A stretch of DNA of 64,000 nt from Gammaproteobacteria bacterium (lineage in GTDB: Bacteria > Pseudomonadota > Gammaproteobacteria > Eutrophobiales > Eutrophobiaceae), in the NCBI GenBank assembly GCA_028819495.1, contig JAPPLI010000149.1, forward strand, positions 153 to 64,152, read 5' to 3'. Each line of letters opens with the position of its first letter. Position 1 is the stretch's first letter. The translations under genes were made by a program, and so were the position numbers. Shown piece after piece: positions 45,162 to 62,113 of the stretch. Below the pieces are notes generated by a model that was given only the letters and a program-made list of their open reading frames with translations, was not told where the DNA came from and made no database searches.

Positions 45162-46610
45162 ATGGGCTTTCATCACAATATCATTATCGACGTTGACAAC
45201 TACAAACACTGCCATTACTCGCTCTATCCGCCCGGTACGGAATATGTTTCCAGTTATATAGAATCCCGGGGAGGTATTCTTCCATCGACAATGTTTGTCG
45301 GGTTGCAGGCGTATATCCGCGAATACCTCATGCGTCCCATTACCCTGGAAGATATCGACGAGGCTGAATTCATCGAACGCGAACAGGGCATGCACTTCAA
45401 CCGTGATAACTGGTTGGGGATACTGAACGACCACGGTGGCTTCCTGCCGGTTGAGATTGAAGCTGTACCGGAGGGAACGGTGTTGCCGCCAAAAAACGTA
45501 TTGGTGCAGTTGATCAATACAGATCCCAAATATTACTGGGCAACCAGCTTTTTTGAAACTTCGCTGTTGCGCGCCGTCTGGTATCCGACAACGATCGGAA
45601 GCATAAGCTGGCTCAGTAAACAGGTAATCAAGGATTCGCTGGAGCATACCTCCGACAACCCGGGTGTCATTCGCCATATGCTGCACGATTACGGCGCACG
45701 GGGAGTAAGTTCGCAACAATCCGCCGCCTTGGGCGGCCTGTCCCATCTCGTCAACTTCAGCCAGAGCGACACCTTGCCCGGTATCATTGCCGCGAAACGT
45801 TACTACAACGCCGGCCACGTATCCAATTCAGGTCCGAATTCCGAACATGCGGGCTTTTGCGCATGGGGGAGGGAAAACGAAGCCGCAGCGCTCCGTAATA
45901 TGCTGGATATGTATGCGGATAACGGCGTAGCCCTGCTTCTTACCGATACATACGATCATGAGAACTGTGTAAAAAATATTATCGGAAAGGAATTGAAAGA
46001 AAAGATTCAGAACTTCCCCGGCCTGGTCGGCGTACGGCCTGATTCCGGGGACGTGGTTCAGGTTACTTCCGACACGACTGAATGGCTGATGGATGCGTTT
46101 GGCTATGAAGTCAATTCCAAAGGTTATAAAGTGTTGCCTCCCTACCTCCGGGTTGTACAGGGTGACGGCGTGAATTTTCCTGTTTTGCCGAAGATATTCA
46201 TTGAACTGGAACGGCGCGGTTTTTCAGCGGAAAATGCGATTTACGGCATGGGTGGCGGCCTGCTGCAACATTTTCATCGGGATACCATGAATTTCGGGCA
46301 GAAGGCCAGTGCTGTGTGTGTAAACGGAGAATGGCGGGACATCTACAAATCTCCAACCGGCTCCGATTTTAAGGTGTCTAAAAAAGGCCGCTTGGCGCTG
46401 AAATACGAAAACGGCACCTACACAACAGTCCCGCGTGATTCCATTCCACCTGAAGAAAACGTACTGATTCCGGTCTTCAGGAATGGAAAACTGTTAAAGA
46501 AATGGGATTTCACTGAACTCATAGAACGCAGTGAACGGGAATACCCCGAGTCCTATTACCTTGACATTGTGAGGCCGCTGCGGGAAGCGCGGAACAGTAC
46601 CGCACGCTGA
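45162..46610 (+). CDS. nadV: nicotinamide phosphoribosyltransferase
   Basis: 482 aa. It has the NAMPT-like N-terminus (NIIIDVDNYKHCHYSLYPPGTEYVSSYIESRGG) and the GVRPDSGD and VVQGDG blocks. An AGGAGA Shine-Dalgarno sequence is present. Confidence 0.9.
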   Translation: MGFHHNIIIDVDNYKHCHYSLYPPGTEYVSSYIESRGGILPSTMFVGLQAYIREYLMRPITLEDIDEAEFIEREQGMHFNRDNWLGILNDHGGFLPVEIEAVPEGTVLPPKNVLVQLINTDPKYYWATSFFETSLLRAVWYPTTIGSISWLSKQVIKDSLEHTSDNPGVIRHMLHDYGARGVSSQQSAALGGLSHLVNFSQSDTLPGIIAAKRYYNAGHVSNSGPNSEHAGFCAWGRENEAAALRNMLDMYADNGVALLLTDTYDHENCVKNIIGKELKEKIQNFPGLVGVRPDSGDVVQVTSDTTEWLMDAFGYEVNSKGYKVLPPYLRVVQGDGVNFPVLPKIFIELERRGFSAENAIYGMGGGLLQHFHRDTMNFGQKASAVCVNGEWRDIYKSPTGSDFKVSKKGRLALKYENGTYTTVPRDSIPPEENVLIPVFRNGKLLKKWDFTELIERSEREYPESYYLDIVRPLREARNSTAR

Positions 46611-47780: not shown

Positions 47781-49508
47781 TCAGGCCGCGTGTTCCTGCA
47801 TCCAGCGGCGCTTTGCTCCATTTACCTCGCCTGTGTGGAACCGGGCAGTGCGGTTTGTCGGTTCCAGGGCTTCGTCATAGAAAAACCCAGGTAATTCGTC
47901 ATCCACCTCGGTAAAACCGGCCGCCTTGTTAAACTCGTCTTCATATTTCAGGGTCCGGTAACCCAGTTCATGGAAAAAGGAAGAATCCAGTTCTGTGCCG
48001 ATGGCAGCATTAATATGCTCCACCATCATCTCAAGTTGGGCATTGGTTACAGTTCCCCCAAACAGGCACAGGCCAAGAGAATCCGCCGCTGCGCATTCAA
48101 CCTGCAATTCCATACTGACGCCCATCAGTTCATCGAGATCTTTTCCCGCACATGCATAAGATGGTGAGTTTCCGGTAGTGTGGTCTGCCCCTTGCGCCGT
48201 GACCATCATGGACAGCCCGGTAACTTCCACCACACGAGGGTCATAAGCGCTGATACCCTGCTTCTTGATTACCGGAGTACGTTGCACCTTGTAATGTTCG
48301 CCTACCCTTGCGGTGCCCTGGGCCCAGAGCCTGCCCTGTTCGCTGCCTTTGCCGATTTCATTCAGGACTGACGTAAGGAACTTTACGTCGCCAAATTCCG
48401 CCAACCCCGCATCCAGCAAAACACCCATCATCGCGCCTGTTTCAATGGTGTCTATCCCGAGCGCGTTGGCAAGGTAGTTCAGGCGGGCAAGGTCATCCGG
48501 ATCCTTGATGCCGCAATTTGTCCCCATTAAGCCCAGTGTTTCATATTCCACCGGCGAGACAATCTCGTTTCCTTCAGCATCCGCATAAACGTTGCTGCAT
48601 TCGATCATGCAGCCGGGCATACAGGCGTGGGCCGTCTGACCTCCCCGTGACATGTTCTGTTCCCGGATGAAAGTACCGCCCATTTTCAGGGTTTCCTTGT
48701 CGGTATCCACCAGGCGCCCGGAAGTAAAATTATTGACCGGTAAACCGCCTATATGGTTTGTCAGGTCCGTTACCATCGCGGTGCCGTAGTCCTTGAAAGC
48801 CTTGACAAGGGAATCCTCATTCAACATGTTGCCGTATTCCCTGATCCCCCGGATCACCTTTTTTCGATCCTGGAACATCGGTATCTTGTGACGTTCGCAG
48901 ACGATAGCCTTGACCTTTTTTGATCCCATCACTGCGCCAACTCCGCCGCGCGCCGCCAGGCGTGTAGGGCGCCGGTCCGTGTCACTCATCCCTATACCGG
49001 CGATCAGTCCGCCGTACTCACCCACAGGCCCGCATAGAGCGAGACTTACCTTGTTTCCGTACTTTTCATGCAGCAATCCGGCACAGGCAAAATTATCCTT
49101 GCCCAGGCAGGCTTCCGCGTCCTCGAATTGCACCGACCCGTCTTTACGCAGGACAATAACCGTCCAGTCGTCTGCAGCCTTGTTGAGCGTGAATCCGGCT
49201 ATCTCCAGTTGTCCCAGCGCCAGACCGAATGAACCGCCGGCATTGGATTCCTTGATGCCCCCGGTAAGCGGACTTTTACAACCGACGCTGATCCTGTTCG
49301 CGTTCGACCAGTTACTGCCGGCGAACGGGCCCACGGAAAATATCAGGGGATTATCGGGAGATAACGGATCCACCGGTCCAACGTTCATATCTACCAGGGT
49401 TTTCGCTATGAAATACCGCCCTGCGCGGGCTATTTCTTCCCCGGCGAGGGTTTCTTCACGCACAGCTTTTTCGGCCAGGTCGACATGCAAATATCTACGC
49501 ATTATCAA
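47781..49508 (-). CDS. aldehyde:ferredoxin oxidoreductase family (tungsto/molybdopterin) enzyme
   Basis: 575 aa. It has the AOR_N-like N-terminus (YLHVDLAEK...), a Cys cluster HACMPGCMIEC and an AOR-like C-terminal domain. Confidence 0.85.
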   Translation of the reverse strand: MIMRRYLHVDLAEKAVREETLAGEEIARAGRYFIAKTLVDMNVGPVDPLSPDNPLIFSVGPFAGSNWSNANRISVGCKSPLTGGIKESNAGGSFGLALGQLEIAGFTLNKAADDWTVIVLRKDGSVQFEDAEACLGKDNFACAGLLHEKYGNKVSLALCGPVGEYGGLIAGIGMSDTDRRPTRLAARGGVGAVMGSKKVKAIVCERHKIPMFQDRKKVIRGIREYGNMLNEDSLVKAFKDYGTAMVTDLTNHIGGLPVNNFTSGRLVDTDKETLKMGGTFIREQNMSRGGQTAHACMPGCMIECSNVYADAEGNEIVSPVEYETLGLMGTNCGIKDPDDLARLNYLANALGIDTIETGAMMGVLLDAGLAEFGDVKFLTSVLNEIGKGSEQGRLWAQGTARVGEHYKVQRTPVIKKQGISAYDPRVVEVTGLSMMVTAQGADHTTGNSPSYACAGKDLDELMGVSMELQVECAAADSLGLCLFGGTVTNAQLEMMVEHINAAIGTELDSSFFHELGYRTLKYEDEFNKAAGFTEVDDELPGFFYDEALEPTNRTARFHTGEVNGAKRRWMQEHAA

Positions 49509-49670: not shown

Positions 49671-51962
49671 TTAAACCGGTGAGTTGATACGGCGGCATTG
49701 AGTGTCTTCCAGAAGCGTTTCATATGCCATTTTTTGATTTTCAGGCAAGTATCCTGCCCTGTGTTGCAATACCTCCAGCAGAGGACAGGCTTGCTCCGGT
49801 CTCGTCGATCCTGAACGGATGCGCACCCTGTTCAGCATTCCTTCCCACCAGATATCGGATGTTGGTAATACCTTATCAGTAATCACGTTCCATGCCTTGT
49901 CGGCAGTAAACGGGTCGCCGGTCAGTTCAGCGGTACGCGCCAGCGAACGCCAGGCATCACCTGAACTCGGATGTTCCCGCGTGAAAGCCAGCGCCTTTTC
50001 GTGGGCTGCTTCCCGGTTATCGATGGAAAGTAAATTCTCTATGATGAGACGGTAGAACCTGCGGTCGATATCAGGCAGCGTTACTGCAGCCGGGTGTGCG
50101 ATTTGCGCCAGTTCCAGTCGTTGCAGTATGTCTTCCCGTCCGGCAATCCAGGGGTATACAAGTTCCAGGGGAAGATCCGGGCTGATACCTTCATTAAGCA
50201 TGCGCATCATTTCCATTAATCCGGGCCAGTCATCCAATCGGTCATATAACTGGAGTCGCGACCATGACAAGGCATGATTGAGGTGTGCATCACGATCGCC
50301 CTTGATGATAATGGAACCCAGCGACCTGATCATTTCATCCGGATATGCAGCGACCAGCTCCTCTTGTTCTTCCGCTTCATAATTTTTCAGGTTGCCAAGG
50401 AAATCCAGTGAATTAATCAACTCATCAGGTCCTGGTTCGACAAGCGCGCGCATCTGCAATAGCAGGGCAATATTGCGAGGATTTGTCCTGTCCGGTTCGG
50501 GTAATTTCCTGAATGCTTCCACGCCTTGACGGGCCAGTTCAGCAGCCGCTTCCGTTTGGGCAGATGTAATCCTGGCGCTGAATTCCCGTGCAATGAAATT
50601 AAATGAAGTGCGTTCCACCGCGCCATTGAATTCCGTAGCTGAGCGGATCTGGCGGAGTGTCTCCAAGGCGCTATCGGCATTCTGTGAGGTTTGTGCAACG
50701 AGTAATCTGGCCTGGTCAGCCTCAGGGTCATCAGGGTTTTTATCCACGAACCGTTTCGCCGCCGAGTGCAGGGACTTGTGGCTCGTTTTATGGCTGTCTC
50801 TCAGGGCGAGCGCCAAGTGAACCGTATACAGCAGCTTTGCCGCTGCCTTGTCAATTTCAGGTGTCAGTCGTTTCCGGCGCCCAAGCTTCTCAAGAACACC
50901 CAGCGCTGTCTGGTAGCTCCCGGCCTTATAGGCTGCGAATGCCCGACGATAGCGAAAAACATCAAGATTAATTCCCTGCTGCGGTATGAACTCCTTGAAA
51001 AATGCTTCATATTTTTGTACGGCTTTCTGATAATCGCTATGAAGCAAACGAAACTCGGCGGCAGCAAGAGTACTCCAGGGGTCAACGTCGATTGCGGCAA
51101 TTTCCTGGGCATAAGCCATTATATTTTCCAGTAATGACTGGTCCATCCGGCCGGCTTTTATGAGTGTCAGGAGGTATCGCGCTATGGCTTGGTCATGCTT
51201 GCTTTCCACGCGGCTCCGTTCCAGTGAGATGAATAATTCCCTGCGCAGCAAACGAGCCTGTTGAGCGTCAATTTCCATACTGATGCCGGCAGCAGTAATA
51301 TCTCCCATGCGCAGTTCCTGCAGCAGCAGTTCCATTGATACAGCCTCTTTGACCGGGGAAGCCGGCAGCGCCGACACTGCTTCATCCAGTTTTTTGAATA
51401 CCTGGCGGGCGCGGGCGGTATGACCCAGTTCCAGGTCAACATAACCGATACCCAGCCATCCTCCATAAAAGAGTTGTGGTCTGAACAACTGCAGTGAGGC
51501 CGCCTGAAACCCTTTGCGTGCGCGCGCCAGAATCCGGTCCCGGTCTGACAGGGATTTTCTGGCTATTTCAAGATCAATCCATGCTGACCAGTAGATAAAG
51601 GAAGCTTCTGCAAAACTCAGGTCGTTCCATGCCTGTGAGCGGTAGAGACGCTCAAGAGCAGCCTCGCTTTGTCCTGTCTTATGTTCTGTGGTCGTCAAAA
51701 TCTGCCCGGACCTTGTCTCCATGGCCCCAAGAAGTTCGCGCAGTGTTTCAAGTTCTTCCAGCTTCAGTGTCTTGCGCGCACCATCAACAATGGGGCCCAG
51801 GTCTCCGGCTATGCGGGCGACATGAGGGGCTTCTGAAGTTGTCCCGAGCTGTGCATGCAAGGCGCTCACGAGTTCAATTGCATTCCTGTTATCAGTGGCG
51901 CTTACCGGCGTGACAGCCATCAACAGAACGAGAATCCTGACTATCATCCTAGCCGCTTTCAT
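49671..51962 (-). CDS. large secreted helical-repeat (TPR-like) protein
   Basis: 763 aa with a signal peptide MKAARMIVRILVLLMAVTPVSA. The body is Ala/Leu/Arg/Glu-rich with helical-repeat character. It lies 29 nt downstream of the VWA gene. Confidence 0.5.
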   Translation of the reverse strand: MKAARMIVRILVLLMAVTPVSATDNRNAIELVSALHAQLGTTSEAPHVARIAGDLGPIVDGARKTLKLEELETLRELLGAMETRSGQILTTTEHKTGQSEAALERLYRSQAWNDLSFAEASFIYWSAWIDLEIARKSLSDRDRILARARKGFQAASLQLFRPQLFYGGWLGIGYVDLELGHTARARQVFKKLDEAVSALPASPVKEAVSMELLLQELRMGDITAAGISMEIDAQQARLLRRELFISLERSRVESKHDQAIARYLLTLIKAGRMDQSLLENIMAYAQEIAAIDVDPWSTLAAAEFRLLHSDYQKAVQKYEAFFKEFIPQQGINLDVFRYRRAFAAYKAGSYQTALGVLEKLGRRKRLTPEIDKAAAKLLYTVHLALALRDSHKTSHKSLHSAAKRFVDKNPDDPEADQARLLVAQTSQNADSALETLRQIRSATEFNGAVERTSFNFIAREFSARITSAQTEAAAELARQGVEAFRKLPEPDRTNPRNIALLLQMRALVEPGPDELINSLDFLGNLKNYEAEEQEELVAAYPDEMIRSLGSIIIKGDRDAHLNHALSWSRLQLYDRLDDWPGLMEMMRMLNEGISPDLPLELVYPWIAGREDILQRLELAQIAHPAAVTLPDIDRRFYRLIIENLLSIDNREAAHEKALAFTREHPSSGDAWRSLARTAELTGDPFTADKAWNVITDKVLPTSDIWWEGMLNRVRIRSGSTRPEQACPLLEVLQHRAGYLPENQKMAYETLLEDTQCRRINSPV

Positions 51963-51991
51963 GGTTTTATCCGCCTCGGTGCGCTACAGCG

Positions 51992-53104
51992 CTATAATTC
52001 ATCCAGTAACGCCTGCATCTCTGCAGCGAACTGATCGCCCATGATCAGCTTCACCAGGCGTTTGGTCAGTTTTATCTCGCCATCCAGCGTTGCAGCATCA
52101 CCCTGACCGGCTTCACTGATCATAAGAAACTCCGGCATAGGCGCATTGCGGTACAGGTGGCGAGGAAGTTCACGACCCAGCTTGGCTTCCAACAGTTGGG
52201 GATTGGCCTGATCGCTGACATCAAGAGTGGATACGGTTCCGCCGGAATGCCTGAACTGTTCAACCATTTGAACCACGTCTCCAATCCGTTTTGGTCCGGC
52301 AGGGGCATCGCCTACCAGTATGATGACCCTGCGCGCGCCGATCCGCCAACCGGACAGGTCGATAGCATCAGCCAACCCGCTGTCAATTGCTTCGAACCTG
52401 TCACCACCCCCTTCTGCCTCCAGGACGGAGAGAAATTGCTGAAGTTTCACTGTGCTATACGTCAGCGCTTGTACGCGAGTTATAAATTCCGGATCATCAC
52501 GGTCCCGGTAAGCAACTATCCCGAACCTGGCTATGGGCACCAGCGACCGCACAAAACGGGTAATATCTTCAATGCGGTTTTTTACCTCGTTGATTACCCA
52601 TCCCATCGAACCCGTGGCATCGATACAGAAAACAACATCCAGACCCGCTTCACGCAAGCCGGCTATGTAAGGGGCGAAACGTGCTGTTCCGTCTCCAAGG
52701 CCATTACCTGTGTCGGTTTTGAAGCCGCCATAACCACTGCCTTCACTGCTCGAAACAAGAGCCAGCCCCCGGGGGATTTCAACACCTTGAAAACCCTGAC
52801 CCTGCGCCCTGAAGGCAAGAATGGCATCAGGCGGAGGCGGAATTGCAGCCTTGGGCGCAATCAGGATATCCGGCGGATCGAACTCCAGTTCCTGTTCAAA
52901 TTCAAGTTGCTCTTCGGGGATCACAGGTTGTTCAGTGTTTACTTCGGGGACCTGTTCAATAAGGATTTCTTCATCTTTTTCAGGGGCCTGTAACACGGGC
53001 TGCTCGATCCCCCGGCCTGCTTGCCATATCACCAGGGCGTGTATTATGGAGGAGCACAGTAATAAGGAGAGCCAAGCGAGCGAATATTTGACTGAATGCA
53101 ACAT
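51992..53104 (-). CDS. membrane-anchored VWA-domain protein with TonB-like N-terminal module
   Basis: 370 aa. The N-terminal TM helix LAWLSLLLCSSIIHALVIW carries an S18-x3-H22 motif. An acidic, proline-rich linker follows (aa about 38-95). The C-terminal VWA domain has a MIDAS-like VVFCIDATGSM motif and ILVGDAP. Confidence 0.7.
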   Translation of the reverse strand: MLHSVKYSLAWLSLLLCSSIIHALVIWQAGRGIEQPVLQAPEKDEEILIEQVPEVNTEQPVIPEEQLEFEQELEFDPPDILIAPKAAIPPPPDAILAFRAQGQGFQGVEIPRGLALVSSSEGSGYGGFKTDTGNGLGDGTARFAPYIAGLREAGLDVVFCIDATGSMGWVINEVKNRIEDITRFVRSLVPIARFGIVAYRDRDDPEFITRVQALTYSTVKLQQFLSVLEAEGGGDRFEAIDSGLADAIDLSGWRIGARRVIILVGDAPAGPKRIGDVVQMVEQFRHSGGTVSTLDVSDQANPQLLEAKLGRELPRHLYRNAPMPEFLMISEAGQGDAATLDGEIKLTKRLVKLIMGDQFAAEMQALLDEL

Positions 53105-53109
53105 TAGTT

Positions 53110-53544
53110 TTAAGGCGCGCCGACCCTGCTTTGCGTAACCAGGGAGAAGCGAAAGATGTCGGCCTGCGCCGCAGCATTCATTATGTCTGAAATAATAAGC
53201 GCGTCTACGTCGGCATCTGCATGAATCCTGAGCTTCTCATAAGCGGGCGTCCCGGCAAGTTCCGTTGTCAACTCGCTTATTTCGATATTGCGGGCTTCAA
53301 ACCATATTCTCCCGTTACGCTCTACGTTTACAACAGGCGTGTTCGCTTCTGTTTTGGTGTTACGGGTGGATACAGGGAGGTTAATATTAAAATCGGAGTC
53401 CAGGTTTCCTGCCACCATAAAATAGAGCAACAGCAGGAAAATAACGTTTATCATGGGAATCACATTTTCTTCCCGCTTCCTGTTACCTTTCACAAAGCGC
53501 CGCTGCGGCCGTCGAAAGTAGGAGCTTTGCCTTATTTGACGCAC
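53110..53544 (-). CDS. exbD: ExbD/TolR-family protein
   Basis: 144 aa. It has a basic N-terminus followed by a TM segment, IPMINVIFLLLLYFMV, which is ExbD-like. Confidence 0.8.
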   Translation of the reverse strand: MRQIRQSSYFRRPQRRFVKGNRKREENVIPMINVIFLLLLYFMVAGNLDSDFNINLPVSTRNTKTEANTPVVNVERNGRIWFEARNIEISELTTELAGTPAYEKLRIHADADVDALIISDIMNAAAQADIFRFSLVTQSRVGAP

Positions 53545-53562
53545 CTGAAGCCTGTTTCCGAT

Positions 53563-53988
53563 TCAATCAAATTGTTGTGCCGCGGTCATTGAAATGCTGG
53601 AAATACCGTGCCGGTTGAACAGGTCCATTATGTCAACGGCACGTTGCAAAACCACCCCCGGGTCAACGCCCAGCACCACACGCGTAGCGTCAGGATAAAT
53701 AATACCAGCCGCATAATTTTGTAAAGCTTCGATATCGGTAGCTGTTCCGTTCAACCAGATAGTCCCGTTGTCGTGTATTTCAATTGAAACTGTATCCGTA
53801 CCTGAAACGGCGCCGCTGGAGCCGGCAGCTTTGGCAAATTCGATAGTATGCGGCCGGAAAAAGTTTGTCTGCAGCATAAAAAAAACCAGCAGGATAAACA
53901 CGCAGTCTATGAGCGGCGTCAGCGACAAACGCCTGTTGCGCCGCTCGTACTTCAATCCAGGGAGGGTTCCAGGACCCGTGCGCATCAT
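53563..53988 (-). CDS. exbD: ExbD/TolR-family protein
   Basis: 141 aa. It has SLTPLIDCVFILLVFFM, typical of ExbD. Its start overlaps the exbB stop (ATGA). Confidence 0.8.
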   Translation of the reverse strand: MMRTGPGTLPGLKYERRNRRLSLTPLIDCVFILLVFFMLQTNFFRPHTIEFAKAAGSSGAVSGTDTVSIEIHDNGTIWLNGTATDIEALQNYAAGIIYPDATRVVLGVDPGVVLQRAVDIMDLFNRHGISSISMTAAQQFD

Positions 53989-54620
53989 GAGGAATAAACC
54001 GGCAGTATCAGCGCCCGGCTGAACACGTCATTCACCTGGTTGGTAAGCACTTCCAGTTTTGACTCAAGGAAGGTGTGCAATACGGCAAAACAGATTGCAA
54101 TGGACAGCCCTACTGCCGTTGTCAGTAACGCTTCCCAGATGCCGCTGGCAAGTGCAGCAGATTCCGCCGCTGAACCGGCGCTGCCTGCCAGGCCCCGGAA
54201 CGCATCAATCATGCCAAGAACAGTACCCAGCAGTCCGAGCACAGGCGCGAGGGTATAAATCAATTCGAGTATTCGGAGGTTCCTTGCATATTCACGTAAA
54301 AATTCCGATGAGCGCCGCAATATTTCATCGTAAAGATAATCGCTGTCCACCCTGGAGCGCTGTTCCAGTACAAAACGCAGGTCATGAGCTATCGCCAAAG
54401 ATGAACCGTCGATGATTTCAAGCGCGCTTTTCTGTTCTCCGCTGTGCCACTGTTCCACAGCCAGGTAAAGCCGCTTGAGTACCGGCTCACTTACTTTTGA
54501 GAACTGCTGAAATTTCCGCAGGGTCAACGCCAGCCCAAATACCGAGGCAACAAGCAAAATTGCTACTATCGGCCCTCCAAGCGCCAACAATGTTTGTATA
54601 TCTTCAAATATATCCAACAT
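53985..54620 (-). CDS. exbB: MotA/TolQ/ExbB proton-channel family protein
   Basis: 211 aa with three TM segments. It has the LGLLGTVLGMIDAF motif. Confidence 0.85.
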   Translation of the reverse strand: MLDIFEDIQTLLALGGPIVAILLVASVFGLALTLRKFQQFSKVSEPVLKRLYLAVEQWHSGEQKSALEIIDGSSLAIAHDLRFVLEQRSRVDSDYLYDEILRRSSEFLREYARNLRILELIYTLAPVLGLLGTVLGMIDAFRGLAGSAGSAAESAALASGIWEALLTTAVGLSIAICFAVLHTFLESKLEVLTNQVNDVFSRALILPVYSS

Positions 54621-54688
54621 AAAAACAGGTTTGTTTACGGTTTATGATTTGATGCCGAGCCTCTTTGTCAACACATTTGATTTATTAC

Positions 54689-54702
54689 TAGAAACGATTC
54701 TA
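54689..54702. promoter_or_regulatory. near-perfect 14-bp palindrome TAGAAACGATTCTA (candidate LacI-type operator)
   Basis: The 5-bp outer arms TAGAA/TTCTA are perfect. It lies about 70 nt upstream of the exbB start. Confidence 0.5.
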
Positions 54703-54846
54703 TACAAATATGCAGACCCTGTAAAACTCTATTCTCGTGTCAGCCGGACCTGGACAGGCGCCCGGGAATCTCCCTACCCATATGGCTGGAGAGTTAAGGA
54801 TGCTCCGGTCAAGTCCATCCAGGACTTTCAGAGTACGCAGTCAGCT

Positions 54847-58446: not shown

Positions 58447-59832
58447 CTACCTGTATCCGGTAAAATCCGCTCCCGGCGCTATGTTCGGGTATCTTTGATA
58501 ACTCCTGGTCAAGTCACCGATGATCTGCTGGATCGGACCATAAGCCCATGCAGTTTCCACAAAGATGTCATTTACTTCCCCGGGATCATTTACCACATCG
58601 TACATGGGTGGAAACACATAGGATTGAACAGGCGCCTTTACCAGCTTTTCAATGGTTTTGAAGTGGACTTTCAATGTTCTCCACTTGACCGAGAACAAAT
58701 CATTGCCGATATAGAACACTATATGTTCCCGCTTTGATTTGTCTGCGCCAAGCAAAAAAGAAGTTTGATCAACACCATCCATTGGCCGGTCTTCGGGTAT
58801 TCTCCTGCTTTCACCAGCTATGTTTGCAATGGTCGGCATCCAGTCCAGGGATGCAAAAATTTCATTGGATACTCGTCCTGCCTTGATTTTCCCGGGCCAG
58901 CGTACCATTCCCGGGGTACGCAAGCCTCCTTCATAACCCGTAAACCCGCCTCGCCAAGGGCCGTTGGAACCACCACCAAACGCTTCAGGGTCGGTGCCGT
59001 TATCGCCCGTTAATATGACGAGCGTATCATTTCTCAATCCTGCTTTATCTACGGCATCCAGAACACGACCGATGTTGTAGTCAAGTTCAGTAATAATGTC
59101 GGCGTAGGTACCGGCACGGGAGATGTTCTTGAATTCAGGATGAACCATCATGGGTGGATGTATCTGGGTGAGACCGACAAACAGGAAAAACGGACTCTTG
59201 TTGTTTTCCTGACGGGCAATAAATTTTTCTGATCTCTCTACGATTTCTCTATCTATGATTTTTCGGGCGTCCAAATCGAATGGTTTGACCTTTATTGCCT
59301 GTTTTCCCTTCGTTCCCTGCCAGATGAACGGCTCCGGGAATATAGCGGGATCGAATTGCGGCGTGGATGAGTAGTCTGCTTCCGTTGAATTTTTAATGCC
59401 GTACCACTCATCAAAACCCTGGTCGGTTGGCAAGCGGCTGTCGATTTCGCCTAAATGCCACTTCCCGTATAGCGTTGTTTGATAACCGGAATCCGACAAC
59501 AGCTCTGCAAGGGTATATTCCCAGGGCGCCAGGCCATAGGGCGCGCCGATAGTCACCCTGTGAGTGCCGGATCGTATGGGCAACCGTCCGGTCATGATCG
59601 CGGACCTGGTCGGTGTGCACTGGACTTCGACGTTGAAATTGGTCAGCCGCAGGCCTTCGGATGCCAGTGAATCGATACGCGGTGTCGGCACCATCCCGCC
59701 CTGCACGGATATGTCTCCCCAACCCCAGTTATCGACCAGTATATAGACAATGTTGGGCCTGTCGGCCTGACCATAGGACAGGCTGCCTGCAACCATCAGG
59801 AGTACTGCCGTCATCAATCTGCGGGTGACCAT
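58447..59832 (-). CDS. arylsulfatase (Cys-type, formylglycine-dependent)
   Basis: It has a signal peptide, the motif CTPTRSAIMTGR (CxPxR), and an N-terminal VDNWGWGD metal-site region. Confidence 0.9.
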   Translation of the reverse strand: MVTRRLMTAVLLMVAGSLSYGQADRPNIVYILVDNWGWGDISVQGGMVPTPRIDSLASEGLRLTNFNVEVQCTPTRSAIMTGRLPIRSGTHRVTIGAPYGLAPWEYTLAELLSDSGYQTTLYGKWHLGEIDSRLPTDQGFDEWYGIKNSTEADYSSTPQFDPAIFPEPFIWQGTKGKQAIKVKPFDLDARKIIDREIVERSEKFIARQENNKSPFFLFVGLTQIHPPMMVHPEFKNISRAGTYADIITELDYNIGRVLDAVDKAGLRNDTLVILTGDNGTDPEAFGGGSNGPWRGGFTGYEGGLRTPGMVRWPGKIKAGRVSNEIFASLDWMPTIANIAGESRRIPEDRPMDGVDQTSFLLGADKSKREHIVFYIGNDLFSVKWRTLKVHFKTIEKLVKAPVQSYVFPPMYDVVNDPGEVNDIFVETAWAYGPIQQIIGDLTRSYQRYPNIAPGADFTGYR

Positions 59833-59920: not shown

Positions 59921-62113
59921 TCAGAAATTATATCTCAGCTCCACCCCGTAGGTGCGCGGGGCGCCCCTGGAGGCACGTAAACCGGAGCCATTGGCAACGA
60001 CATCATCAAAATAATCTTCATCGGTAAGATTATTTCCGTACGCTGACACTTCCCAGTGCTCATCGGGCATGTAGCTCAGTCTCGCTGTGAGAAGACCATA
60101 GTCATCCTGCCTTAATGGAGCCATATCGGCTTCGGCGACAAAGTCAAAGAGATAACTATCCTTGTGCGAATACGTGACTACCAGGGGCATACTTGCGTTA
60201 TTCCAGGTGAATTCATAGGCCATGGAAGCGAATATTGAAAAATCCGGCGCTCTTAACAAGGACTCACCGCTGGCATCGATACCTATAGTTCCGGTCCCGG
60301 GCGTACCGCCAAAACCCCGGGCAGCCGCGTCGAAATCAGTATATTCGCTATCCAGGTAGTTGAATCCACCGGTTAAAGTCAATTTGTCCGTTACCAGCCA
60401 GGTGAAATCCATGTCTATGCCCCAGATTTCCGCTTCAGCCGCATTTTCCGTAGTTGCCGTTGCGCCGGCCCCCTCGGATGCCCTTGTTACCTGCAGGTCC
60501 TTATAATCATAGTAAAAAACAGCAGCATTCAAACGCAGTTGGTTATCCAGGAATTCTCCTTTCATCCCCAATTCAAACATGTCAAGGATTTCCGGCTTCA
60601 GGGGTTGTCCACCGACAGCCGGATAATTGAATCCGCCACTTTTAAATCCCCTCGCATAGGTAAAGTAATACATGACATCATCAAGATTGTACTCGAGTGT
60701 GGCCTTTGGTGTGAACTCGGTCCAGGAGTCCTTCTGCGCAAACGGCATTGCACCACCTCCAAAAGTAAATCCGGCATCCGGAGAGACGACCACCAGGGCA
60801 TCTTTTTCATCGTCGCTGTAACGGCCGCCGGCAGTCAGCGACCAGCGGTCGTTTATGTCCCATGTCGCCTGGCCGAAAACGGCCCATGAATCTGATTCAA
60901 CTGTCTGGAATCCCTGCGAGAACACAAAACCGTTAATATCTATTATGAGATCCAGGTCCGATTCTTCGGAAAAGTAATAAGCGCCCGCTATCCATTGCAG
61001 GTTACTGTCGTTGTTTGAGATTAACTGGATTTCCTGTGACACGTTGTTGACAAAATCATCCCCGCCTATTACGTCAAACAGCGCCGATGTGCCGTCTCCG
61101 TCCGTGACAAATGTATTATCCAGGTCCGTAAAGGTTGTAATTGATATGAGGTCGACGCCTTCGAGAGCGACATCGAAACGCAGGCTGCCTGAGAACTCTT
61201 CTCCCTTGTTTTTGTCGGTCCGGGCCGTTGCAACTTCGTCATCAGCCGTGGCCGTTACGCCTAAAACGCTCAAAAGACTGAGTCCGGGAGGACTGAGATT
61301 GGTGATATCGTTCCCCAGGTTATCATCACGTTGCCAGTAGTTCAGCGTAACGCGGGCAGTTACATTACCGGTAACGTCCCAACGAAACTTTCCGCGAAAA
61401 GCCTGGTAATCTTCATCGTCAAGTTCCGAGACTCCACCGGGGAAAATATTATCGGCATACCCATCGCGCCACTTGGCCAGTGCGCTCAGCCTTACCCCGA
61501 AATTATCGGATAAAGGAAGACTGACTGTACCGGAGAGTTTAACAGCATCGAAATTGCCATAGCCGGCGCTGATACTTCCCTCAAATTCGTCAGCCACATC
61601 TTTGGTGATTACCCTTATGGCGCCGCCAGTAGCATTTCTGCCATACAGGGTTCCCTGCGGCCCCTTCAGTACTTCCACCCGCTCAACATCGGCAAATTCG
61701 ATGGTTGATGCAGTCGCCCTCGACAGGTAACGATCATCCTGATAGGTCGCAACGCTCGGCTCAAGACCATTCAGCGCCAGCCGGGTGCCGACGCCGCGCA
61801 GAAAAGGCTGGGCGCTGTTTGCAGTGTTGTTGAAAACCAGGCCGGGAGTTGTCGCCTGCAATGCCTGGGTATTGGAAATACCAAAATCACGCATGGCTTC
61901 CCCGGTAAATGCAGTGACCGCAATGGGCACATCCTGTAGGCTTTGGGCGCGTTTCTCAGCCGTAACAACGACTTCCTCCAGTACACGCGACCCGGTGCCT
62001 GTTTCACCGGTTTGCGCGGATGCATCCTGAACACCGACAGGCCCTGCAAATACAACTGCGATACCGCCAATAAAGGATGTCCACTTTGAACCGCTTTTCT
62101 TGTGTTGCTGCAT
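59921..62113 (-). CDS. TonB-dependent outer-membrane receptor
   Basis: 730 aa with a signal peptide. The plug region reads EEVVVTAEKR...VEVLKGPQGTLYGRNATGGAI, and the C-terminal barrel ends in RYNF. Confidence 0.9.
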   Translation of the reverse strand: MQQHKKSGSKWTSFIGGIAVVFAGPVGVQDASAQTGETGTGSRVLEEVVVTAEKRAQSLQDVPIAVTAFTGEAMRDFGISNTQALQATTPGLVFNNTANSAQPFLRGVGTRLALNGLEPSVATYQDDRYLSRATASTIEFADVERVEVLKGPQGTLYGRNATGGAIRVITKDVADEFEGSISAGYGNFDAVKLSGTVSLPLSDNFGVRLSALAKWRDGYADNIFPGGVSELDDEDYQAFRGKFRWDVTGNVTARVTLNYWQRDDNLGNDITNLSPPGLSLLSVLGVTATADDEVATARTDKNKGEEFSGSLRFDVALEGVDLISITTFTDLDNTFVTDGDGTSALFDVIGGDDFVNNVSQEIQLISNNDSNLQWIAGAYYFSEESDLDLIIDINGFVFSQGFQTVESDSWAVFGQATWDINDRWSLTAGGRYSDDEKDALVVVSPDAGFTFGGGAMPFAQKDSWTEFTPKATLEYNLDDVMYYFTYARGFKSGGFNYPAVGGQPLKPEILDMFELGMKGEFLDNQLRLNAAVFYYDYKDLQVTRASEGAGATATTENAAEAEIWGIDMDFTWLVTDKLTLTGGFNYLDSEYTDFDAAARGFGGTPGTGTIGIDASGESLLRAPDFSIFASMAYEFTWNNASMPLVVTYSHKDSYLFDFVAEADMAPLRQDDYGLLTARLSYMPDEHWEVSAYGNNLTDEDYFDDVVANGSGLRASRGAPRTYGVELRYNF

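Follow-up and report, generated by a model that had tools for sequence, protein, structure and literature searches.

A compact proteobacterial operon of the vWA force transducer class with an Asp/Asn pair of ExbD-family subunits and a TPR-like partner

Introduction

Two routes by which inner-membrane energy is delivered to the outer envelope of Gram-negative bacteria are understood, namely, the Ton and the Tol–Pal systems. Proteins of similar topology to TolA and TonB, designated 'vWA force transducers', have been described computationally, with Tichowtungia aerotolerans providing the prototype (PMC12204202; Mol Biol Evol, June 2025). In each of these transducers, a transmembrane (TM) helix that carries an SHLS motif is joined by a disordered linker, which includes a motor box, to a C-terminal von Willebrand factor A (vWA) domain, and in an AlphaFold3 (AF3) model the conserved His touches the motor (PMC12204202). 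The transducer genes adjoin tolQ-like, two tolR-like and tetratricopeptide repeat (TPR) genes, and the class has been reported in Proteobacteria, the PVC group, Bacteroidetes and Rhodothermaeota (PMC12204202). In this study, we analysed a stretch of 64,000 nucleotides (nt) from a gammaproteobacterial assembly (GCA_028819495.1, contig JAPPLI010000149.1, positions 153 to 64,152; hereafter, the window), in which five minus-strand genes encode one ExbB-family protein, two ExbD-family proteins, a vWA protein of 370 aa and a TPR-like protein of 763 aa.

The five-gene operon and its class

The open reading frames (ORFs) of the operon are located where the original prediction, made from the letters of the window, had placed them, and are as tightly packed as it had described: the exbB and exbD1 genes overlap by 4 nt, and the subsequent intergenic gaps, calculated from the ORF coordinates, are 18, 5 and 29 nt. 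No convincing terminator-like site was found between the five genes. From 5′ to 3′ on the minus strand, the gene products, with the evidence for each, are as follows.

53985..54620, minus strand: ExbB/TolQ/MotA-family proton-channel subunit, 211 aa (Pfam MotA_ExbB)
53563..53988, minus strand: ExbD/TolR-family subunit 1 (ExbD1), 141 aa (Pfam ExbD)
53110..53544, minus strand: ExbD/TolR-family subunit 2 (ExbD2), 144 aa, GTG start (Pfam ExbD)
51992..53104, minus strand: candidate vWA force transducer, 370 aa (Pfam VWA, AlphaFold2, Foldseek)
49671..51962, minus strand: secreted all-alpha TPR-like solenoid, 763 aa (AlphaFold2, signal peptide)

Every testable architectural feature of the published class was found in this operon, and for this reason the operon is assigned to the vWA force transducers, by architecture and synteny against the published description (PMC12204202). 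The 370-aa protein shares with the described transducers the TM Ser and His, a disordered Pro-rich linker of approximately 100 residues and the C-terminal vWA fold, and its gene has the same tolQ-like, two different tolR-like and TPR neighbours (PMC12204202). The original prediction had also held that no system of such architecture was described. Its structural reading stands, but this claim of novelty was superseded by the 2025 report: the operon is not new as an architecture, and represents a compact proteobacterial member of a computationally described class. Differences within the class concern gene order and number; the TPR gene comes first in the PVC group (PMC12204202), whereas the order in the window is motor–vWA–TPR, with the TPR gene last, and the Tichowtungia locus has two transducers, against one in the window. 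The published description makes no mention of an Asp/Asn split of ExbD, of a metal ion-dependent adhesion site (MIDAS) motif or of an FHA-fused branch (PMC12204202). Our analysis adds to it the Asp/Asn asymmetry of the stator, the vWA–TPR core, variants of the gene order, the retention or loss of the MIDAS by branch, and the FHA branch.

The operon was also compared with other systems with a motor of this family. As in TolQ–TolR–TolA with CpoB/YbgF, a motor, a transducer and a periplasmic TPR protein are encoded in one operon; in addition, TolA has the S-x3-H helix in common with the 370-aa protein, and the 763-aa protein weakly matches YbgF. In contrast, CpoB/YbgF is a protein of approximately 260 aa, and the locus contains neither a TolA C-terminal domain nor tolB or pal, on which grounds identity with TolA or Tol–Pal was rejected. 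A second vWA family, of the trans-pore-helix (Idiomarina) type, also links a vWA domain to a TolQ-family motor, but is accompanied by tolQ only, its helix being ExbD-like and Asp-bearing, with no tolR or exbD genes (PMC12204202). This family was rejected as well, since the helix of the 370-aa protein carries S-x3-H but lacks an Asp, and the locus includes two exbD genes. Zorya or another anti-phage system was likewise rejected: PADLOC gave a weak MotA-family match (E 3.5e-4) on ExbB and no match on the other four proteins.

The 370-aa vWA protein

The 370-aa protein had been predicted to join a TonB-like N-terminus to a vWA domain in place of the TonB C-terminal domain. In agreement with this, the Pfam models VWA_4, VWA and VWA_2 matched residues 156–319 (E 9e-10 to 4e-6), and no TonB_C match was obtained at E<=1 with Pfam or NCBIfam. 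The AlphaFold2 (AF2) monomer model, built on 64 homologues, consists of a confident helix (residues 3–31), a disordered region (residues 32–139) and a vWA fold (residues 140–370, pLDDT >90) that extends to the last residue. Because the vWA fold fills the whole C-terminal half, no space is left for a TonB-type domain, cryptic or otherwise, and identity with TonB was rejected. The parts of the protein are as follows.

53012..53098, minus strand: N-terminal TM helix, residues 3–31 (AF2, alignment)
53039-53053, minus strand: S18-x3-H22 (SSIIH) in the TM helix (translation)
52688..53011, minus strand: disordered acidic, Pro- and Gly-rich periplasmic linker, residues 32–139 (AF2, composition)
52952-52972, minus strand: strand-like motif EEILIEQ in the linker (alignment, translation)
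52826-52921, minus strand: conserved linker block IPEEQLEFEQELEFDPPDILIAPKAAIPPPPD (alignment, translation)
51995..52687, minus strand: vWA domain, residues 140–370 (Pfam, AF2, Foldseek)
52607-52621, minus strand: MIDAS-type motif D162-A-T164-G-S166 (DATGS) (translation, alignment)

In the alignment of the vWA proteins (64 sequences, 54% mean column identity), S18 and H22 were invariant amid a TM helix (HSVKYSLAWLSLLLCSSIIHALVIWQAGR, which contains no Asp) of which most neighbouring positions were conserved at just 20–50%. Judged from this contrast, the S-x3-H of the 370-aa protein is not a chance match. In the N-terminal signal-anchor helix of E. coli TonB, S-x3-H is located equally far from the start of the protein (S16 and H20, compared with S18 and H22 in the window); the E. 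coli TonB and TolA sequences serve here only to illustrate the register of the motif.

The linker is acidic and Pro-rich, as had been predicted, and resembles that of TonB in this as well as in its periplasmic location. Its 108 residues include 15 E, 13 G and 13 P, and the pLDDT falls below 50 across residues 34–48, 84–88 and 94–139. Residues L67, F69, L81, P90 and P91 are nevertheless invariant in the 64 sequences, and a strongly conserved block follows the pattern LEFEEELE..PPEILIAP.A..PPPP. An alternating hydrophobic motif is located approximately 15 residues past the helix, with the sequence EILIEQ in the window and QVVIEI or KVVVKL in relatives. This is the same place at which TonB has an experimentally shown ExbD-binding motif, in the disordered region just past its helix (PMC10771500).

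The vWA domain contains the predicted DATGS motif, with DxTxS invariant or nearly so: D162, T164, T215, E238 and D266 are invariant across the alignment, and S166 is nearly so. To judge from the motif (DxTxS ... T ... D), the MIDAS-type site is probably functional. The best Foldseek matches of the domain were BatB of Bacteroides (3ibs), integrin beta I-like domains and CMG2/TEM8; a PDB profile search with the vWA family yielded weak integrin beta-8 matches only.

The match to BatB, the best in the PDB by fold, bears on the alternative that the vWA and TPR proteins form a static, membrane-anchored periplasmic complex for adhesion or assembly, as BatA/BatB–BatC, in which the S-x3-H helix would do no more than tether or stabilize the protein beside the ExbB ring, or would regulate the motor, without transmission of force through the vWA domain. 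Bat proteins likewise include a membrane-anchored periplasmic vWA protein adjoining a TPR protein, and the 763-aa protein gives a weak match to BatC; the vWA–TPR pairs without adjacent motor genes and the lack of a proton-binding Asp in ExbD2, both described below, would also be in keeping with a static complex. However, the two residues that are invariant are exactly those used by TonB and TolA for coupling to the motor, the length and composition of the linker are TonB-like, and the genes are tightly linked to motor genes in operons of three proteobacterial classes. Bat operons include genes for MoxR and DUF58 but lack those for ExbB and ExbD, and Bat proteins are not known to have the S-x3-H coupling helix. 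We consider a static complex rather unlikely. The Bat aerotolerance operon itself was rejected, since neither a MoxR AAA ATPase nor DUF58 is present in the gene list of the locus, and the likeness to BatB is one of fold only.

Motor subunits

All three motor subunits matched their Pfam families (ExbB with MotA_ExbB, E 4.8e-26; ExbD1 and ExbD2 with ExbD, E 6.8e-18 and 1.9e-16, respectively). Scores with the NCBIfam equivalog models were low: ExbB gave 55 bits with TolQ (cut-off 221) and 45 bits with ExbB (cut-off 206), and the ExbD and TolR models also scored the two window ExbDs far under their cut-offs. Compared with ExbB–ExbD–TonB, the motor subunits of the window are thus not ExbB or ExbD equivalogs, and 'ExbB' and 'ExbD' are, by these scores, family names that carry no functional assignment. 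When ExbB was aligned to the solved ExbB 7ajq, the Thr of 'GTV.G' in TM2 and the Glu/Thr of 'EALL.T' in TM3, residues that border the proton pathway in the ExbB structures solved so far, were found to be retained. The positions that distinguish the two ExbD subunits are as follows.

53905-53907, minus strand: Asp28 codon of ExbD1 (TM motif TPLIDCVFI)
53446-53448, minus strand: Asn33 codon of ExbD2 (alignment to E. coli ExbD, 6tyi)

The TM Asp of ExbD1 is present in 67/67 orthologues. In ExbD2, N33 aligns opposite D25 of E. coli ExbD, and Asn occupies this proton-binding position in 61 of the 64 best matches (loci L003–L079); as to the remaining three, two (L039 and L041) are matches to the ExbD1 gene, and the third (L015) ends before the TM helix. 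Since Asp is kept in ExbD1 and Asn in ExbD2 at the proton-binding position, the alignments argue for an obligate ExbD1/ExbD2 heterodimer, which would form an asymmetric stator with a single protonatable site. An Asp-to-Asn change abolishes the function of homodimeric ExbD or MotB, and for this reason the conserved asymmetry is of mechanistic interest. No mention of an Asp/Asn split between ExbD paralogues was found in PMC12204202 or in reviews, and literature searches on such pairs yielded nothing relevant. A PDB sequence search with ExbD1 gave no match at E<=0.01.

In public gene calls on identical contigs, ExbD2 is annotated as a protein of 114 aa with its start at M31, inside the TM helix. 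The residues upstream of M31 (EENVIPM) are conserved across loci, which favours the 144-aa form with a GTG start as the likely product.

Distribution and gene order

The neighbourhoods of 79 loci from species-representative genomes were surveyed. The order exbB–exbD–exbD–vWA–TPR was retained in approximately 60 of them; in Gammaproteobacteria, where Halieaceae and Porticoccaceae are among the carriers, it persists at vWA identities as low as about 44%. The S-x3-H helix was found in nearly all of the 79 loci, including the alpha, delta, Myxococcota and Binatia members, and a TPR-like gene followed the vWA gene in nearly every locus, making it the most constant neighbour. Alphaproteobacterial PS1/Parvibaculales loci have the same layout, with a secreted protein of 754 aa that is a remote homologue of the 763-aa protein (hhalign probability 94.5%). 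A variant was detected in delta/Binatia loci (L076, L078, L080 and the contig of P0204), in which the genes for vWA and a TPR protein of approximately 790 aa are followed by exbB and a single exbD with Asp. The TPR proteins of the delta loci are likewise remote homologues of the 763-aa protein. In the vWA domain of this variant, PSSP replaces GDAP, and the last MIDAS Asp is thereby lost; the site is intact in the gamma and alpha branches. Together with the delta/Binatia variant, the retained gene order bears out the expectation that the vWA and TPR genes are conserved with exbBD genes.

vWA–TPR pairs without adjacent exbB or exbD were found in several genomes, in the loci L024, L034, L064 (upstream of 7001) and L082. 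The pair in L064 is a second copy in a metagenome-assembled genome (MAG) that also carries a complete cluster (L043), and the pair in L082 (5669-11356) is preceded by an ECF sigma factor, a zf-HC2 anti-sigma factor and a 240-aa protein. Such pairs resemble TonB paralogues that borrow a motor encoded elsewhere. From these gene orders, the vWA–TPR pair appears to be the conserved core of the system.

An exhaustive profile search returned 318 clusters (50% identity) at E<=1e-30; among the best 150 of these clusters, at least 87 have a hydrophobic helix with S-x3-H ahead of the vWA domain. A Verrucomicrobiae cluster with the S-x3-H helix (P0364/P0472) matched the family profile at E 6e-46, which provides an indirect link to the Tichowtungia prototype. 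When the profile search was seeded with distant members, mainly Binatia, delta and Myxococcota-type proteins were recovered, and none with a source named as PVC. The Planctomycetota locus L081 was rejected as a member, since a clean S-x3-H is missing from its vWA protein and motor genes do not adjoin the vWA gene.

A separate branch was observed in which a cytoplasmic FHA domain precedes the S-x3-H TM helix and the VWA_4 domain in proteins of 570–730 aa (P0376, P0387, P0399, P0403, P0409, P0411, P0425, P0453 and P0457; one is annotated Planctomycetota). The domain order suggests that such transducers may be coupled to Ser/Thr phosphorylation signalling. Two tandem vWA genes, for proteins of 463 and 396 aa, were observed in L083 (6526-9191; Verrucomicrobiae-type cluster P0364/P0462), preceded by a protein with a weak match to sigma-70 region 4; the cluster of the 396-aa protein carries the S-x3-H helix, and no motor genes were found within 8 kb of the tandem genes. 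The arrangement recalls the 'two transducers' of Tichowtungia (PMC12204202 supplement).

The distribution among hosts bears on a further alternative, that of a surface adhesion or gliding machinery analogous to Agl–Glt with the vWA adhesin CglB. This possibility was raised both by the original prediction and by PMC12204202, and a TolQR-type motor does occur together with a vWA protein. Here, however, the vWA protein is not a surface lipoprotein but a periplasmic protein with an inner-membrane anchor, and no glt-like genes are present in the locus. The hosts, all MAGs, belong to marine Gamma- and Alphaproteobacteria with a planktonic or symbiotic life, for example Halieaceae, Porticoccaceae and the PS1 clade, and gliding is not known in these groups. 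A gliding or surface adhesion machinery is thus very improbable.

The 763-aa TPR-like protein

The 763-aa protein begins with a signal peptide that lacks a lipobox (residues 1–24; 51891-51962, minus strand, by sequence). Only sub-threshold TPR/YfiO matches were obtained with Pfam, in addition to the weak NCBIfam matches to YbgF and BatC mentioned above. Its AF2 model (pLDDT 87) is a solenoid of approximately 40 helices, and Foldseek returned generic long TPR scaffolds only (TM ~0.2). One of these, a Campylobacter flagellar periplasmic scaffold, was rejected as a guide to function, the match being generic at the same score. Two Cys residues, C726 and C756, are invariant.

The most conserved stretch of the protein is residues 93–131 (TG..EAALERLYRSQ.WDDLSF), which is also the region that can still be aligned with the alphaproteobacterial homologue. 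Within it, E93, E100 and E104 are invariant, and may be regarded as candidate acidic ligands for the MIDAS site of the vWA domain.

Because no other gene accompanies the vWA gene as constantly as its own, and because the vWA–TPR pair is also kept where motor genes are not adjacent, the 763-aa protein is the best candidate for the ligand or scaffold of the vWA domain.

Genomic surroundings

A marine-metagenome scaffold (99 kb) is identical to the window sequence, and the nearest genomes are Gammaproteobacteria MAGs. In the 226-nt spacer 5′ of exbB, two candidate sigma-70-like promoters each fit the consensus at 10/12 positions, as consensus matches only. The features surrounding the operon are as follows.

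54644..54725, minus strand: two sigma-70-like promoter matches upstream of exbB (consensus matching)
47781-49508: tungsten-type aldehyde ferredoxin oxidoreductase (AFOR_N/AFOR_C)
45162-46610: NAMPT-type nicotinamide phosphoribosyltransferase
58447-59832: sulfatase
59921-62113: TonB-dependent receptor (Plug and barrel domains)

The flanking genes that could be tracked across loci were not conserved with the five-gene module; nucleoside hydrolase and aldehyde ferredoxin oxidoreductase genes accompany the cluster in close relatives only. The sulfatase and TonB-dependent receptor genes, which are located approximately 5 kb upstream of the operon, lie past most of the fetched flanks, and the statement on flank conservation rests on the nearer genes.

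The neighbouring receptor lends itself to the alternative that the 370-aa protein is an atypical TonB for import, in which the vWA domain has replaced the TonB C-terminal domain and still energizes transporters such as that at 59921-62113, for example by binding of the MIDAS site to an acidic residue of the plug. The gene indeed sits in the tonB slot of a classic exbB–exbD–exbD–tonB–TPR layout, following exbB–exbD as tonB does. This alternative is at odds with the position of the trackable flanking genes outside the conserved module, as well as with the absence of the TonB C-terminal domain, which recognizes the TonB box by beta-strand addition (PMC12204202). Moreover, the partner of TonB is a barrel bearing a TonB box, whereas the constant partner here is the TPR protein. 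An atypical TonB for import therefore seems improbable, and the output of the window system is probably not TonB-box-dependent import.

Discussion

The preferred reading of the operon, which we regard as probable, is that the 370-aa protein is a transducer coupled to the proton-motive force (PMF), in which the helix docks on the ExbB ring and the vWA head passes tension to the TPR protein or to a target scaffolded by it. In this mechanism, ExbB would form a pentameric ring around a heterodimer of ExbD1 (Asp) and ExbD2 (Asn), and the helix of the vWA protein would dock outside the ring via Ser18 and His22, as the helices of TonB and TolA do. The conserved strand-like motif of the linker would engage the periplasmic domains of ExbD, and proton flow would put tension on the vWA domain, which would grip its partner via the metal site. 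The partner would most likely be the co-conserved TPR protein, or something at the cell wall or outer membrane for which the TPR protein acts as a scaffold. The co-occurrence data are compatible with the proposal of the original prediction, in which the motor would pull on an interaction made by the vWA domain, possibly with the TPR protein.

Several observations weigh against a PMF-driven transducer. No function is known for the class, and no deletion phenotypes have been reported (PMC12204202). Within the SHLS motif, S and H alone are conserved, the consensus having V and I in place of the L and the last S; the region of the linker motif EILIEQ is not predicted as a beta-strand (the 'motor box') in the AF2 monomer model. 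The vWA–TPR pair occurs without adjacent motor genes in several genomes, as described above, and no outer-membrane component is encoded in the cluster. In addition, ExbD2 lacks the proton-binding Asp, and since the Asp-to-Asn change is inactivating in the homodimeric proteins, the motor may operate differently or may not rotate continuously.

Taken jointly, the observations could be read as a third functional type of Ton/Tol-like envelope machine, in which a vWA–TPR core is driven by an obligately asymmetric ExbD1-Asp/ExbD2-Asn stator in an ExbB ring. Force would then be borne by a metal-mediated MIDAS bond and not by beta-strand addition, the output would be neither import through a transporter nor mobilization of Pal, and related lineages would wire the transducer to Ser/Thr phosphorylation signalling via an N-terminal FHA domain. 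We put this joint reading forward tentatively, as a possible but doubtful one.

The locus in the window offers a compact five-gene proteobacterial version of the system, with H22 of the transducer, D28 of ExbD1, N33 of ExbD2 and D162 of the MIDAS as key residues, and with a TPR partner. The conserved Asp/Asn pair of the stator could inform the debate on how 5:2 motors use two proton-binding sites. As the 318 clusters that match the profile show, transducers of a third family, whose head domain is completely different, are widespread, which implies an unknown energized process of the envelope in many marine and soil bacteria.

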